From Eledone cirrhosa (lineage: Eukaryota): 64,000 nt of DNA. The first letter of the stretch is position 1; each line of letters opens with the position of its first letter. Location of the stretch: assembly GCA_964016885.1 (NCBI GenBank), contig OZ024742.1:299026001-299090000 (forward strand). The letters run 5' to 3'. Made by a program: the position numbers and the translations under genes. The notes beneath the pieces are model-generated. The model did not search any database. It was not told the origin of the DNA and saw only the letters and a list, made by a program, of their open reading frames with translations. This document shows, piece after piece, positions 710 to 29,170 of this stretch.

Positions 710-1163
710 ACTGGTAAGGGTTATACGGAACGGGAAGAACAACCGTATTAACGCGCATGCGCAGAATAAGTCCCTCAAAGACTCATATAGACTACTCCAT
801 TCAACGGAAAGCTATCACTAAGTCCAAGCCATACGCTAGAGGCAATCCGTCTTGCGGACTGTGTATTGAAGAAGGGATAAATATTCTAAGGAGATTACGC
901 AATAGCGATTGTCAAAAATCAAGATTTGAAATCTTCTCACGTTGTCCACATGTATGGAAACACCTCTTGCATAATTACAAAGCTCCGGATTGAATAACAA
1001 CATTTTTAATTTTCTAATCAACTCGAACATTTTATTCCGGACATTTGCAGTTTTCTCCATTACACCTTTCGCTGGTGGTTTTGTATCGCTTGGGTGAAGT
1101 GACTGTTTCTGCGCATGCGCGTTCATACGGTTGTTCTTCCTGTTCTATATAACCACTGCCAGT

Positions 1164-1204
1164 CCGAGCTGAAGATCTGCATAAGGTGAAACGATTGTCC
1201 TTTG
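1164..1204 (+). ncRNA. degenerate minimal hammerhead motif (second pLTR copy)
   Basis: ccgag-CTGAAGA-tctgcataaggt-GAAAC-gatt-GTC; the 3' strand of stem I is mutated. Confidence 0.55.
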
Positions 1205-1289
1205 TATGGTGAACTAACTGTTGTGTTACTACTTCTATCAAACTTGTCCCAATGGCTGAGTGCTCTACCACTACGGATATTACCTTCCA

Positions 1290-1300
1290 GTGTTCTACCT

Positions 1301-1390
<90 letters not shown>
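1290..1390. repeat. (CT)n(TA)n microsatellite
   Basis: Seen directly. Confidence 0.95.
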
Positions 1391-1874
1391 GTGCGCACAC
1401 ATGGGATGAAACACAGTTCAAATTCTGAAACTTGCCAATATGACTGAAAAAAAAAGAGAAATCATTTCTTTGACGCCATCAATAGTTTTATTGACCAATT
1501 AACAAAAGACCCGACTCATTCGTGTCAAATGATGGAACCGAAATATCCAAATCTTCTGGAAAATATCAATAACTGTTGGCACAAACATTTCACTCTGATT
1601 TGATAGCACTGTCATCAAATTATTACACCAGAGACGTATATACAGGACAACTGTGTGAATTACATGAAATAATAATATTGATTTTTCAAACCCGATACAA
1701 AATCAGTAGGTTGTATGAAAAAATATATCAAGATGACTTTAAAACCAACACGATAAAATAATCAAAGACGACAGCCGGAGTGACTTCCTTTGGTTTGAAT
1801 CAGAACTTTAAAGACGAGATATGCCTGAGGAAATACAAAAGAACAGATGTTATTATCCACAACTAATCAAATTC

Positions 1875-2060
1875 ATCTATCTATCTACCTATATATCAAT
1901 GTGGCCGTCTACCTATCTATATTTCTACCTACCTACCTACCTACCTACCTACCTACCTACCTACATACATACATACATACATACATACATACATACATAC
2001 ATACATACATACATACATACATACATACATACATACCTTATTTATTTATCTATCTATCTA
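1875..2060. repeat. (TATC)/(TACC)/(TACA)n tetranucleotide microsatellites
   Basis: Seen directly. Confidence 0.95.
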
Positions 2061-2347
2061 TACTCAAGTTCAAAAAAATTAATTTGTGAATAGTAAACTA
2101 ATTAACCGCCGTAAGACACGAATAACTGATAATATTTATCTCATAAACGTATGTATTTATACACCCCTAATATCCATACAATCACACACATATTCATGCA
2201 TATTTATATATTTATACATATATATGCGTGTGTGCGTGTGTGTATGTGTGCGCGCGAGTGTGTGTATGCGTGTATGTGCGTGTGTGCGTGAGTATATATA
2301 TATGTATGTATTTATATATCTATGTGTGTGTCATATATATATATATA

Positions 2348-5300
2348 TCATCATCATCATCATCATCATTTTACGTCCACTCTTCCCTGCTTGCAAGGGT
2401 GGGACGAGTCTTATTCGGTACAGCATCTCTCCACTCGTCACGGTCCTTCGTCATCTCCACCGTGAGCTTCAGCGATCTGAGGTCTGTTCTCATCACCTCC
2501 GCCCATGTTTTTCGTGGTCTACCTCTACCACGTCTTCCTTCAACTGGCATTTCCTGGCACTTCTTCACCCATCGGTCATCATCCATGCGCATCACATGTC
2601 CATACCACCTCAGTCTCCTCTCTCGCACACTACATTCTATCCCCCTCAGACACATTTTCTCTCTCAACACATTCATGCTGGGTCGTTCACGCACATTGAC
2701 ACTGCACATCCAATGGAGCATGCTTGCCTCATTTCTCTCCAGCCGTCGCATATCCTCTGCATTTGCTGCCCATGTCTCACTACCATGCAGCATCGCGCTC
2801 CTCACACAGGCATCATATAACCGGCCTTTCGTACGCATGGAGAAACCCTTCTTCGTAAGCAGAGGAAGCAGCTCCCTAAACTTCTTTCAACCCGTCCTTA
2901 TTCTAGATACTATGGCCTCGGAACCCCTCCCCCCTTCCATGCTAATCTGATCTCCTAGGTACAGGAAGCTATCCACCACTTCTATAGCACCTACCTGCAT
3001 TTGAAAAAATGTGTCTATCAATGCGACTTCTACTGTCTAATTTCCCCGTACATCCACTGCATACGTATTTCTCCCTACCTGCTCGTTTGCCCGCTATCTC
3101 GCCACATCTCCCGTGCACCCAGGATCCACACTGCGTGCATTTTATAGAATTTATGCCAGTTCCTTTTCCGCATATCGAACATGGCCATTTCCCCGACGTA
3201 ATCAGAGCTCTGTCCTCTTTTCTACTCATCAACACTTTTGTCTTAGCTAGGCTCACTCCCATCCTCCTGCTCCCAACTGCTGTTTCCATAGCCAGAATCT
3301 ACTTTCTAGCTCCTCCACCGATTCTGCTACATGGACCAGATCATTAGCATAGAGAAGTTCCCACGGACAGCCAGTCCCAAACTCCTCTGCCATGGCCTGG
3401 AGGACTACAATGAACAAGAGCGAGTCGAGGACCGAACCCCGACGCACCCCCGACGCACCTCCCTAAGAACCTCTCCTGCAACTGTCCCACCAAGAAGAGG
3501 GCATCTACTGTACTCCTCCCAGGCACAAAACCAAACTGCATCTCACCCAGCCTGACCCTTTCTCCAACTAGTTGCGCCAACATCCCCTCTGCCACCCCCG
3601 CAACCCGATCCATCAGCCCCATACCCCCACAATTGCTCCCCCCCCACCCTTGTAGCAATCTATGAGAACACCGCTGCACCAGTCTTTGGGTATGACACCA
3701 CCATACACAGCCCGACCGATGATGCGTGTAACCAGTCCAGTGCTCACGTCCCCTGATGCCTTCAGCATCCTAGCAACCATTCACGATGATCCAGCAACCC
3801 TACCACCCCTCATTTACCTAATCGCCTCTTGGACTCCATATTCGTCAATCTCAATATCCGGTCCCTCCGTCGGATCTACCGGGAGCAACCTCTCTCTCTC
3901 CCACTCGTTTTCTACATTCATCAGTCTCTCACAACGACACGTCCAGCCCCCCCCCCCCTTTCTGATCATTCGTGACACCAAGTACACCGGCACCATTCCG
4001 GACACATCCATATCCAACAACATCCTGATCCGCTTTGACACACTGCCTTGCAATGTGGAACACCGCACGCCTCTGACCTTCCCGTCGCAGAACATTGGCA
4101 AACCTCCTACTCTCAGCCTCCCTGCGTGCTAAGTACACCTGACGTCTAGCTTCTCTCTTAACGGCTGTATATTCTTCCCTACTCCCACCCTTTTTCCAAG
4201 CCTTCCATGCTAGTCTTTTGTCTCTAATGGCCTTATCTACTGTGCTGCTCAACCACCAGGTCACTCTTTGTCTGGTTGGAGCTCTGCTCCAGCCACAAGT
4301 TTCATCAGTAGCCTGCAGCAAGTTGTCACGTAAGAAATTCCAGTTATTATCTATGTCATACGTCTCTAAATCGTCTTCTCTCCCGCCATACACATCCCGA
4401 AGGCCTTTCCTAAATTTGTATTTTAGTGAAAGGTCCTTTAGCTTCCAGACCTTTCTTCTCCACACCTTCCTGTATGCCTCATTCCGTCTCTTGCTTACTG
4501 AGATACCACCAACGACTAACCCATGCTGTGGGAAACATTCTTCCCCGGGCTATGCCTTGGTATTAGACACCATCTGCCTGTCCCGCTGCCTAACTAGTAA
4601 GAAGTCAATCTGGCTTATGTGCTCGACAGTTTGTAGGTTATTAGGTGATGGCAGGTTTCTGGAAGTTAGTGTTGCAAATAGTCAGTGTACCTGCATCACA
4701 AAATTCAAGAAGTCTCACTCCTTCATTTCTTGAGCCGTAACCGTGCCCACCATGTACCCCAGTGTAATCTGGAGCTGTCCAACATGACCATTGAAGTCCC
4801 CTGCCAGCACAACGATGTCTCCATCCTCTGTCATTGCGGCTGCCTGTAAAAGTTGCTCGTAAAAGCAGTCTTTCTCATCTTTGCCTAGGCCTGGTGGGGA
4901 GCATAGGCAGAGATAATGGTCAGTAGTCTCCTGGCTACAACTAATCTAAGCTTAATTATTTGATTACTAACTCGAACTACCTCTATTGTCTTATTGATCA
5001 ATCTCTCAGCCAGGAAAATGCCTACTCCACCTAAACCATCATCCTTACCTACCCAGAAAAGCTTATAGCTAAGATGTTTGCCTACGACTACTCTCGCAGA
5101 GGCATCTCTCCATCTCACTTCTTGCACGCAGCACACATCCACATGCCTTCTTTCCAGCATCTCCGCTTTTTCAGCAGATCTACCTCTGAGAGTGCCAACA
5201 TTAAGCGTTGCAACTCTGAGATGCGACGTCTTCATATTTTGTTGTTGTTCCTATCTATTTGTTGCTGTGCTGCTAAGCGTTTTGGCATTGATACACTGGT

Positions 5301-5430
5301 TGGATGCCTTTCCTAACACCAGCGCCACTTTACAGCATGGACTGGGTGCTTTTATTTGTGCCACCAGCACTAGAGAGGATGTCTTACTAGACTCAAGGGC
5401 CCTCTCTACCACTCCATTTTACAGCATGGT
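2348..5430 (-). mobile_element. near full-length RTE-clade LINE (APE + RT), pseudogenised, with an A>G-hypermutated central tract
   Basis: APE motif VATLNVGTLRGR...CCVQEVRW (4885-5235), RT motif ELLYAND, C-terminal RLRWYGHVMR...RGRGRPRKTW (2371-2838), and a (GAT)n 3' tail at 2348-2369. Collinear with the copy at 24700-29170. Confidence 0.95.
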
Positions 5431-5567
5431 CATTAAAAAAAAACAAAAACACTTATTGACACGCACACACACACACACATACACCAACACTCATGCATAC
5501 AAACTACAAACACACACGTCACTCACACACCAACACTCATGCATACAAACACACACACCACTCACAT

Positions 5568-24699: not shown

Positions 24700-27600
24700 T
24701 CTGTAAGCCGTAGTGTAGACAAACCGTCTAGGAGAGCTACCACTCCGAATAAATTGGTGCGGGGTGGAGAAGTTCCCTAAGTCCAATAAGATGACTTCGC
24801 TAGTGCTGGTGGCACAAATAAAAGCACCCGGTCCGTGCAGTAAAATGGAGTAATGGTAGTAGCATTCAGCTATTAAAAACAATGCCAAACTATGGGGTGG
24901 AGAGGGCCTCTAACTCCAGTAAGACAACCGCTCTAGTGCAGGTGGCACGAATAAAAGCACCCAGTCCATGCTGTAAAGTGGTGTTGGTGTTAGGAAGGGC
25001 ATCCAACCAGTATATTAATGCCAAAACAATTATGAGCATAACAAATAAATATCGCAATAACTGCGTAAACAGCAATGACACTAACCATGTTAGTGCTGCG
25101 CACGGTAGTGGGGTGCCTAGTGCAGACATGTGCGAGAACGCCCCCCCCCCCCCGACCGTAATCAAGAAAACGCACAAACACATGATTATAAACCATTTTT
25201 CTTTGCAGAAAAGGAAGAAACAACGAAAGACGTCGCATCTCAAGGTTGCCACACTTAATGTTGGCACCCTGAGAGGTAGATCTGGTGAGTTAGTGGAGAT
25301 GCTAGAGAGAAGACAAGTGGATGTGTGCTGCATGCAAGAGGTGAGATGAAGAAGTGCCTCAGCAATACTACTCGTAGGCAAACAGCTTAGCTATAAGCTT
25401 TTTGGGGTAGGAAATGATGATGGGTTAGTCGGGGTAGGCATTTTATTATCCGGGAGGTGGATCAATAAGACAATAGAGATAGTTAAAGTCAGTAATAGAA
25501 TAATTAAGATTAGATTAGTTGCAGGCAAGAGACTGCTGACAATTATGTCTAGCTATGCTCCCCATGCGGATCTAGGTAAAGAAGAGAAGGACTGCTTTTA
25601 CGAGCAGCCCCTAGAAACAACCACAATGACAGAGAACAGAGACCTAGTTATACTAGCATGGGTCTTCAATGGTCATGTTGGACAGCTCCAGGATGGTTAC
25701 ACTGGGGTACATGGTGGTCATGGGTATGGCTCAAGAAACGAAGAAGCAGTGGGGCTTCTTGAATTTTGTGATGCAAGTGAACTAACCATTTGCAAAACTA
25801 ACTTCAAGAAACCTACCAACCACCTAATAAAATACCAATCAGGCGAGCGCATAAGCCAGTTTGACTTATGCTAGTTAGGCAACGAGACAGACATACGAGG
25901 TGGGTCAGAAAAGTTATAGGACTGATGTCACAAAAGATTTATTTCAAACCCAAACTTTACACTAGGAGTTTTCTCCTTCAAAGTAATTCCCCTGGAGTAT
26001 GTAACTGTAATCTTAACTCTCTGCAACGATCAAACATTTTTCTTCATAATGTTATATACATGTCCTCTGTTTCAGGTCGTCAAGCAATGAGCACAGAGCA
26101 ACGAACACACTTGAAAACTCCGTCAGAAGCACTGGGATTGCTGCAGCAAGTGTATGGAGATGAGACGATGTCACGCTCACGTGTTTTTGAGTTGTGCAAG
26201 AGGTTTAAAGAAGGACGCGAGGACGTGGAAGATTACCCCAGGAGCGGAAGGCCCTCAACAACCAGGACTGAGGTCAACGTTGAGCGCGTTAGGCAGATGG
26301 TGCGTAGCGATCGTCGGCTGACTGTTCGACTGATGGCAAATGAGCTGGGCATGAATCAGGACAGCGTCTGGAAGATTCTCACTGAAGATTTGGACATGCG
26401 GAAAGTCTGGCGAAGATGGTGCCAAAACTGCTGAACAATGACCAGAAGGGTCGACGGATGCAAGTGTGCCAGGACATCCTTGAGCGTCTTGAAACAGAAC
26501 CAGACTTGCTAGGGCCGGCCATCACCGATGATGAGTCGTGGATCCTCGAGTACGACCCGGAGGGGACCCGTTTTGAAAACGTGGACGACATCAAAAAAAG
26601 GCCGTAACGACGGAACTGTGGAGGATCCCGGAAGAATCCTTCCAGGAGTGCACGCAAGCGTGGCAAAAAAGGATGGAAAAGTACATTAGACGCCAGGGGG
26701 ATTACTTTGAAGGAGAAAACTCTTAATGTGAAGTTTGGGTTTGAAATAAATCTTTTGTGACATCAATCCTGAAACTTCTCTGACCCATCTCGTATGGTAT
26801 CAAATACTAAGGCATACCCCGGGGAAGAATGTATCCCCCAACATAGGTTCGTCGTTAGTGACATCTCAATAAGCAAGAGACAAAATTAGACACACTGGAA
26901 GGTGTGGAAAAGGAAGGTCTGGAAGCTAAAAGACCTTTCACTAATATATAAATTTAGGAAAGCCCTTCAAGATGTGTATGACGAAAACAAGACGAGTTAG
27001 AATCGTATGACATAGATGATAATTGGAATTTCTTACGTGACAGCGTACTGCAGGCTACTGAAGAAACTTGTGACTGGAGCAGAGCTCCAACCAGACAGAG
27101 GTTCACCTGGTGGTGGAACAGCACGAAGGATAGAGCCATTAAAGACAAAAGACTAGCATGGAACGCTTCGAAAAATGGTGGGAGTAGAGACCGATTCACA
27201 GCCGCTAAAAGAGAAGCTAGACGTCAGGTGTACTTAGCACGCAGGGAAGCTGAGTGTAGGAGGTTTGCCAATGTTTTGTGACAAGAAGTTCAGAGACGTA
27301 CGTTGTTCCGCATTGCAAGGCAGTGTGTCAGTGTAAATCAGGATGTTGTTGGAGATAAGTGTGTCCTAAATTATTCTGGTGCACTTAGTGTTACTGATGC
27401 GCAGAAAAGGGAGGCTTGGAAATGTCATTATGAGAGGCTGATGAATGATGAGAACGAATGGGAAGGAGAGAAACTACCCCCAGTAGACCCGACAGAGGGA
27501 CCAGCTATTGAGATTGTCGACTATAGGGTCAAATAGGCAATTAAGGAAATGAAAAGTGGTAAGGCTGTTGGACTGCCAGAGATAGTTGCTGAGATGCTGA

Positions 27601-29170
27601 AGACATCAGAAGTAGGAACTAAACTGGTTGCACGCATCGTCAATCAAGCTATATATGGCAGAGTCATACCCAAAGACTGGTGTAGCAGTATTCTTATAAA
27701 TTGCTACAAAGGTAAATGGGATGCTCTGGAGAGGAGCAAATTTAGGGGCATGAAACTGTTGGATCAGGTTATGAAAGTGGCAGAAAGGATATTAGCGCAA
27801 CTAATTAGAGAAAGGGTCAAACTAGATGAGATGCACTTTGGTTTTGTGTCTGGGAAAAGTACAACAGATGCCCTCTTCTTAGTGAGACAACTACAAGAGA
27901 GGTTCTTAGAGAAGTATAAGCCACTATACTTAGATTTTGTTGAATTAGAGAAGGCATTTGATAGAGTCCCCCGATCTGGTGGTCCTTAAGGAAACTAGGT
28001 GTAGAGGAATGCAAGCTATGTACAGGTGTGCTGTCAGTAAAGTGAAAGTAGGAATGGAGTTTAGTGAGGATTTCCAGATACAAGTAGGAGTACATCAGGG
28101 TTCGGCCCTCAGCCCGCTCTTGTTCATTATAGTTCTCCAAGCCATAACAGAGGAGTTTAAGACTGGTTGCCCATGGGAACTTCTCTATGCTGACGATCTG
28201 GTACTTATGGCAGAATCAGTAGAGGAGCTAGAGAATAAATTCTGGCTATGGAAACAGCAGTTGCAATCAAGAGCACTGAGAGTGGAAGTAGCTAAGACTA
28301 GTGTTGATAAGTAGAAAAGAGGATATAACTCTGATCCACCAGAGAAATGGCTATGTTCGATATGTAGAAAAAGAGTTGGCTTAATTATATAATATGTACA
28401 CAATGCAGATATTGAGTACACAAGAAATGTAGTGGGATAGCAGGCAAACTAACAGGTAGGGAAAACTACATATGGAGTAGATGTTCAGGAAAATTTGACG
28501 GTTGAAGTCAGCGATAGACACATTTTTCAAATGCAGGTAGGATCTATAGAGGTGGCTGATAGCTTCCGATACCTAGGTGATCAGTTTAGTAAGGGAGGAG
28601 GGTGCTCCAAGGCCATAATATCTAGAATAAGGACGGGTTGGAAGAAATTTAAGGAGCTGCTTTCTCTGTTGGCAAAGAAGGGTTTCTCCCTACGAACGAA
28701 AGGCCGGTTATATGATGCCAGTGTGAGATGCGCGATGCTGCATGGTAATGAGACATGGGCAGCAACTGCGGAGGATATGCGACGACTGGAGAGAAATGAA
28801 ACAAGCATGCTCCATTGGATTTGCAATGTCAATGTGCGTGAACGACCAAGCATAGACGAGTTGAGAGAGAAACTGTGTATAAGAGGCATAGGTTGTAGTG
28901 TGCGGGAGAGAAGACTGCGTTAGTATGGACATGTAATGCGTATGGAGGATGACCGCTGGATAAAGAAGTGCCAAGAAATGCCAGTAGAAGGAAGAGGCAG
29001 TAGAGGAAGACCACGAAAATCATGGGCGGAGGTGGTGAGAGCTGACCTCAGATCGCTCAAGCTCACGGAGGAGATGACGAAAGACCGTGACGAATGGAGA
29101 GATGCTGTGCTGAATAGGATCCGTCCCACCCTTGAAAGCAGGGAAAAGCGGACGTAAAATGATGATGATG
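24700..29170 (+). mobile_element. RTE-clade LINE (sister of 2348-5430), pseudogenised, interrupted by a mariner
   Basis: APE VATLNVGTLRGR, RT GVHQGSALSPLLF and LYADD, C-terminal RGRPRKSW, (GAT)n tail at 29159-29170. The 5' boundary is approximate. Confidence 0.95.
25896..26792 (+). mobile_element. internally deleted mariner transposon with ~100 bp TIRs and TA target-site duplication
   Basis: TA at 25894-95 and 26793-94; TIRs 25896-25995 and 26693-26792. Transposase motifs FKEGREDVED.PRSGRP, DRRLTVR, VPKLL and DESWILEYDPE, then a jump to the C-terminus GDYFEG. The RTE frame rejoins across the insertion. Confidence 0.95.

Follow-up and report, generated by a model that had tools for sequence, protein, structure and literature searches.

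The focal element and its setting

The window analysed here is a stretch of 64,000 nucleotides from Eledone cirrhosa (assembly GCA_964016885.1, 3.0 Gb; OZ024742.1:299,026,001-299,090,000, forward strand). Its minus strand carries a dead, full-length copy of a non-LTR retrotransposon (LINE), which we label RTE-type from the single-ORF architecture of the family, with APE endonuclease and reverse transcriptase (RT), and from its short-repeat tail. Features referred to in the text are listed below.

2348..5540, minus strand: full-length RTE-type non-LTR retrotransposon, dead copy (end-to-end alignment with intact copies)
2348..2369, minus strand: (ATG)n 3' tail passing into a (TA)n microsatellite (read in the sequence)
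3045..4090, minus strand: main A>G tract, up to and across the RT domain (103 of 329 As are G; T>C 2/227)
3437..3458, minus strand: junction where a 197-nt RT deletion meets an 11-nt tandem duplication (three A>G changes common to both units)
3947..3958, minus strand: G12 run; a mixed A/G stretch in relatives, extended by 4 nt relative to the sister copy (alignment)
4380..4522, minus strand: weaker second A>G tract (11 listed sites; 12/169 As changed in 4091-4600, p 2e-7 against 1%)
24761..29170, plus strand: inverted sister copy of an older subfamily, unedited, used for comparison only (alignment)

An intact relative (L051) has a single ORF of 1048 codons with the domains PF03372/PF14529 (APE endonuclease), PF00078 (RT) and PF00628 (PHD finger). 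Homologues found were almost all unnamed; active RTE LINEs are known in octopus (PMC9115989). The RT region is abundant in the genome, a first search with an 801-nt stretch having returned 7,210 candidates. The focal 5' UTR is common to two other copies (L036 and L060) to at least position 5540, and a target-site duplication sought at the focal insertion could not be called, both flanks being microsatellite. Judged by its other divergence of 2.6% (8.3% in the sister), the focal copy is an ordinary middle-aged copy. Deletions and frameshifts are present in it as well, and its RT core aspartate codon is altered by an ordinary G>A change. Since both 11-nt units at 3458-3437 share three A>G changes (the duplicated edited sites include 3445, 3443 and 3440), the rearrangement probably postdates editing. 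The G12 run, which falls within the gap-free contig of run X1 described below, may likewise reflect slippage after editing.

A short interspersed repeat carries the last 85 nt of the LINE (reference 3377-3462, many loci) and is also resembled by the LINE 5' UTR (window 5250-5410); this repeat is likely a SINE partner. Many copies (L068-L090, on C18, C28 and small contigs) are truncated at one position, reference 1942, which points to segmental duplication of a single insertion. Other inverted pairs in the window lie at 36562-37808/40513-41754 (91% identity, with 41 T>A differences) and at 48764-50175/52235-53668 (96% identity).

Comparison of family copies

Each copy was scored, column by column, against the letter most frequent among the other copies. 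In total 142 copies were mapped, 10 of 150 loci having been dropped (the window's own locus, repeated hits to one place and one identical twin), and the 131 unedited family copies form the yardstick set. Further edited copies were retrieved with short edited queries, and the set was chosen after the counts had been seen. Run X1 holds 1,394 million letters of contigs; its type is not on record and, from its size, is probably genomic.

A one-way A>G tract in the focal copy

An earlier note, made from the sequence of the window by hand, had counted 28 A>G, no G>A and 6 other differences over 165 columns between the focal copy (3622-3458) and the sister (27750-27914); our recount returns the same figures, as it does for the sparing of As that follow G (5/18 changed, against 23/39 of the other As). 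The flank described there as balanced (4360-4090) has 9 A>G and 8 G>A relative to the sister, and the reported RT motif changes (GVHQGS>GVRRGS, KLLDQVMK>GLMDRVAG, RQLQE>GQLQE, EEFKTG>EEFGTG and HYE>RCE) can be read directly in the alignment. Column-wise comparison with the 131 other copies confirms the A>G polarity beyond the sister alone. The extent of the tract has to be redrawn: of the span 2870 to 4090 proposed earlier, the upper bound holds and the lower does not, the dense part stopping near 3045, and the weaker tract at 4380-4522 lies outside it.

Against the 131-copy yardstick, the A>G count in 3045-4090 has a binomial p of about 1e-73 even with a 3% background, and G>A and C>T there stand at 10/291 and 7/159. 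A>G is 7/257 farther 5' than position 4600 and 6/195 in the 3' 680 nt. The family background over the 131 copies is 0.49% for private A>G and 0.39% for T>C, free of context bias. A>G amounts to 0.3-3.1% in the first 59 comparison copies, where its density peaks at no more than 5 per 100 columns, against 22 per 100 in the focal copy; private changes in the sister (9 A>G, 7 T>C) form no cluster. APOBEC-type DNA editing was rejected, the sense-strand G>A cluster being absent. Within the focal tract, changes affect 71/233 As at non-synonymous sites and 31/92 at synonymous ones. Among the 40 best genomic matches none is a near-identical offspring of the tract, the closest reaching 83%.

Recurrence in other copies

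Ten further copies carry A>G tracts of their own and make up, with the focal copy, eleven loci on seven contigs.

L062: A>G at 75 of 424 As
L063: A>G at 74 of 653 As
L064 (C5:28815300-28816330, minus strand): A>G at 95 of 273 As, the most heavily edited (35%)
L066: A>G at 35 of 471 As
L092: A>G at 22 of 678 As, among the two weakest
L112: A>G at 23 of 239 As
L114: A>G at 37 of 420 As
L116: A>G at 23 of 234 As
L122: A>G at 16 of 357 As, among the two weakest
L124: A>G at 39 of 543 As

After removal of subfamily variants, private A>G changes in these ten number 11-68 and T>C changes 0-2. In other changes they diverge by 0.9-6.6%, and only 0-3 such differences are common to the focal copy and any one of them, so the tracts represent separate events in old and young subfamilies. 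Edited sites are shared more often than context alone would predict in 9 of 10 pairs (10 against 4.4 and 12 against 6.0, for example), by up to about twice, which could reflect hot spots or a partly shared history.

Edited copies are rare. Copies picked without regard to editing, by an unedited 3' stretch, gave 0 edited of 29, the best 58 matches of two similarity searches gave none, and the hot zone of L062 used as a seed gave no new edited copy among 19. As a rough estimate, the edited share may be a few per thousand copies. An exact genome-wide motif search returned one match for the A>G motif, the focal copy itself, and none for its T>C mirror. With two mismatches allowed, the A>G motif had 8 matches, 2 of them edited (the focal copy and L064, both already known) and 6 of them copies from the old subfamily that are unedited and carry a common G variant, against 0 for the T>C motif, numbers too few to decide. 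T>C reaches at most 4 per 100 columns in the 142 copies, among which sampling by edited queries favoured A>G.

Other repeats for which a yardstick was available (163 kb) contain 3 small single-type clusters. In one of them, at L205:9385-9667 (near C5:28825385), 12 sense-strand A>G changes, 8 of them after U, are confined to the 3' 300 nt of a copy from a second family, which from its motifs we take to be CR1/L2-like.

The tracts may also relate to how copies end. L112 has a sharp edge, with 23/77 As changed in its first 200 nt and 0/174 thereafter, and among other 5'-truncated copies the first 200 nt are edited at 12/69 in L116, 26/69 in L064 and 10/66 in L066, and are nearly unedited in L114 (2/56) and L124 (2/65); copies may have been cut short where the RNA was edited or paired. 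There is no clear enrichment of internal deletions (5 in 17 kb of edited copies against 42 in 293 kb); the numbers are small, and that for L064 is inflated by an alignment cut-off. L064 consists of an edited RT segment joined to an unedited SINE-like one that bears the LINE 3' end, possibly a template-switch chimera or the product of a later insertion accompanied by deletion.

Drive of the active lineage by ADAR was considered separately and rejected: columns that differ from old to young subfamilies comprise 52 A>G, 32 G>A, 18 T>C and 29 C>T, and these changes are unpolarised, fall mostly at third codon positions and have a slight 5' skew also seen in the reverse direction.

Presence of the changes in genomic DNA

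A 313-nt contig of run X1 (depth 5.1) matches 3676-3988 with 0 differences and 0 gaps and spans 29 edited sites. This match argues against assembly error rather than for fixation in the population, since X1, the sole run resolving the locus, may come from the assembly's own animal. Runs X4 and X5, examined for an orthologue in other organisms (B and C), have depth 0 over 3709-4017 at 92% likeness, a gap that in itself proves nothing, and in RAD run X9 the signal at the focal locus is swamped by other family copies and carries no information on fixation.

We consider it highly improbable that the tract is an artefact of assembly or of polishing with RNA. Such an explanation could draw on the unrecorded type of X1, on its perhaps being the assembly's own sample, and on support that consists of a contig rather than raw long reads. 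It is opposed by the exactness of that contig at depth 5, by the duplication at 3458-3437 that repeats three edited sites, by a GT/G microsatellite expansion within the edited stretch of L064, and by the occurrence of tracts of differing ages at eleven loci on seven contigs.

Sequence context of the changed adenosines

The probability of change in the focal copy depends on the 5' neighbour (U 27/70, A 37/95, C 18/71, G 13/110; p 5e-6), a bias absent from unedited copies (p 0.13). Pooled within the tracts of all eleven copies, change follows the 5' order U 35%, A 26%, C 15%, G 8% (p 1e-27) and the 3' order G 23%, A 20%, C 20%, U 14%, the effect of a 3' G having p 0.009 in the pool and 0.05-0.08 in the focal copy alone, and positions -3, -2, +2 and +3 are nearly flat. 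For metazoan ADAR, Zhang et al. (PMC9989829) report that 5' U or A is favoured and G disfavoured, and that 3' G is favoured and U disfavoured; Eggington et al. concur on the 5' preference (PMC3113232). In the pooled copies, the 5' and 3' neighbour pattern matches this published motif.

These neighbours bear on two other origins. A burst of RT misincorporation opposite A, or a different adenosine deaminase acting on RNA or on the new plus strand, would also account for strand bias, clustering and arrival of the copy in a dead state, which suit any process tied to retrotransposition. The preferences on both sides of the changed A are, however, those published for metazoan ADAR, and other changes within the tracts stay at background (in L062, 10 against 75 A>G), so that we assign this origin very little probability. 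Hypermutation of double-stranded DNA directed at TpA is suggested by TpA being the most changed context, yet ApA is also heavily changed (194/730) and the mirror change remains at background, with T>C before A at 7/506 against A>G after T at 171/493; its probability is in our view negligible.

Pooled over the eleven copies, 164 of 727 synonymous As (22.6%) and 350 of 1887 non-synonymous As (18.5%) are changed, a near-blindness to codon effect that is expected from one burst followed by little later selection.

Editing before or after insertion

The sharp edges of some tracts, together with the lack of enrichment for inverted neighbours and of any mirror signal, fit editing of the template RNA before insertion. 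Under the alternative, the copy would have been inserted unedited and changed later in place: ADAR would have edited the DNA strand of an RNA:DNA hybrid, or an edited host transcript paired with the sister would have served as a template for repair. ADAR acts on the DNA strand of RNA:DNA hybrids, and the inverted sister, 22 kb off, covers the tract; L062 and L124 also have inverted neighbours, and another retroelement, 9 kb away from L064 and on its strand, has a small A>G cluster.

We nonetheless regard change in place as unlikely. An inverted copy of the same family that covers the tract occurs within about 10 kb of 2 of the 10 other edited copies and of 2 of 10 controls, leaving 8 of the 10 edited copies without one. 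Neither the sister nor the inverted neighbours of the other edited copies bear a T>C mirror, and focal edits show no preference for would-be A:C mismatches with the sister (4/13, against 99/312 elsewhere). Four other repeat pairs in the window, including inverted pairs closer together than the focal copy and its sister, have no one-way A>G excess, and a second-family copy that sits between L064 and the nearby A>G cluster was itself used as the unedited yardstick.

Proposed mechanism

We hold it very likely that a LINE RNA, probably paired with antisense RNA, was hyper-edited by ADAR and then reverse-transcribed into the germline. The reading of the earlier note is supported in part: an ADAR-type signature that entered DNA through retrotransposition is backed by strand, clustering, neighbour motifs and recurrence, by the sequencing-run match and by an ADAR2 gene with intact catalytic motifs in the exon seen.

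ADAR requires dsRNA. About 1-1.5 kb of the sense RNA would have become double-stranded, with a partner supplied in trans or within a read-through transcript, since a 1.3-kb stretch of an intact copy forms short helices and no long hairpin in a single MFE fold, run without shuffles. ADAR would then have deaminated about 30-55% of the As in the double-stranded part. In target-primed reverse transcription inosine would be read as G, as RT is described to copy it (PMC5224506), and only A>G would be recorded because the sense strand is the sole template in such copying. The tract alters about 70 codons, RT motifs among them, so the copying enzyme would have come from unedited RNA, through translation ahead of editing or through supply in trans. 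The focal copy would have been dead on arrival, leaving no offspring.

The genome has three loci with an ADAR deaminase domain. That of ADAR2 lies at L190:1246-2067 (C6) in two large exons; the other two ADAR-family loci, also of several exons, are on C1 and C25. In the ADAR2 exon seen, the CHAE, PCGD and SCSDK motifs are intact and the sequence is 95% identical to ADAR2 of Octopus vulgaris.

At another locus (L055:5-884 and 963-3459), a near full-length copy adjoins an inverted RT fragment (88% to the reference). A locus of this type could produce a transcript that forms dsRNA.

Relation to known systems

A-to-G hyperediting by ADAR is on record for the avian retroviruses RAV-1 (Felder 1994) and avian leukosis virus (Hajjar and Linial 1995), according to the review PMC8586724. 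The focal tract resembles these in its clustered sense-strand A>G changes and in an RNA genome that replicates via reverse transcription, and differs in that the element is non-LTR and copied by nuclear target priming, is found in a germline-derived assembly and recurs over copies of different ages. With the APOBEC fossils that Knisbacher and Levanon describe in LTR elements (PMC4866542) it shares strand-specific host-deaminase clusters seen by comparing copies, although theirs are G>A changes from cDNA editing and ours are A>G. That screen, as described, was confined to LTR elements, LINEs being excluded; other mismatch types were very rare in it and invertebrates came out blank.

ADAR hyper-editing of repeat dsRNA in metazoans and cephalopods likewise involves young repeats and an equal neighbour motif, in RNA only as reported (PMC9989829, PMC9068888), whereas the focal change is in DNA. 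Human ADAR1 also encounters LINE RNA (PMC5224506). According to that report its restriction of L1 is independent of editing, unlike the focal case: L1 RNA was unedited by ADAR1 in cell culture, with no edits in more than 2.5 kb, and the authors left rare editing possible. Zaranek et al. (PMC2873906) surveyed mismatch clusters in sequencing traces, and the A>G clusters are taken there as RNA-level events. A literature search, with most subscription journals outside its reach, returned no report of ADAR-edited genomic LINE copies. A>G hypermutation of avian retroviruses and G>A fossils of APOBEC are known, and what appears to be new is an ADAR-type scar in genomic LINEs.

Implications

Transposon defence is named as an unexplored function of editing in a cephalopod genome paper (PMC9068888), and the earlier note had also raised the possibility. 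The low edited share suggests leak-through rather than proof of a main defence, with the qualification that surviving copies, none of the 29 unselected ones being edited, say nothing of RNAs that were degraded or failed to insert. The killing of the focal copy by editing alone is unproven, because of its deletions, its frameshifts and the G>A change in its aspartate codon, and L1 restriction by human ADAR1 is mostly independent of editing (PMC5224506).

We lean towards the broader view that ADAR has repeatedly mutated non-LTR retrotransposons in the germline, and that octopus genomes, and probably animal genomes, hold datable hyper-editing fossils in several LINE families. Edited genomic copies can be counted from assemblies alone, by frequency, family, age and strand. 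They would distort estimates of repeat age and may mimic editing sites when RNA-seq data are mapped. If this view is true, edited copies, in needing RT from unedited RNA, would provide a record of trans-mobilisation and of the sites of antisense coverage. That edited full-length LINE RNA can enter germline DNA would mean that RNA editing may become heritable through retrotransposition.
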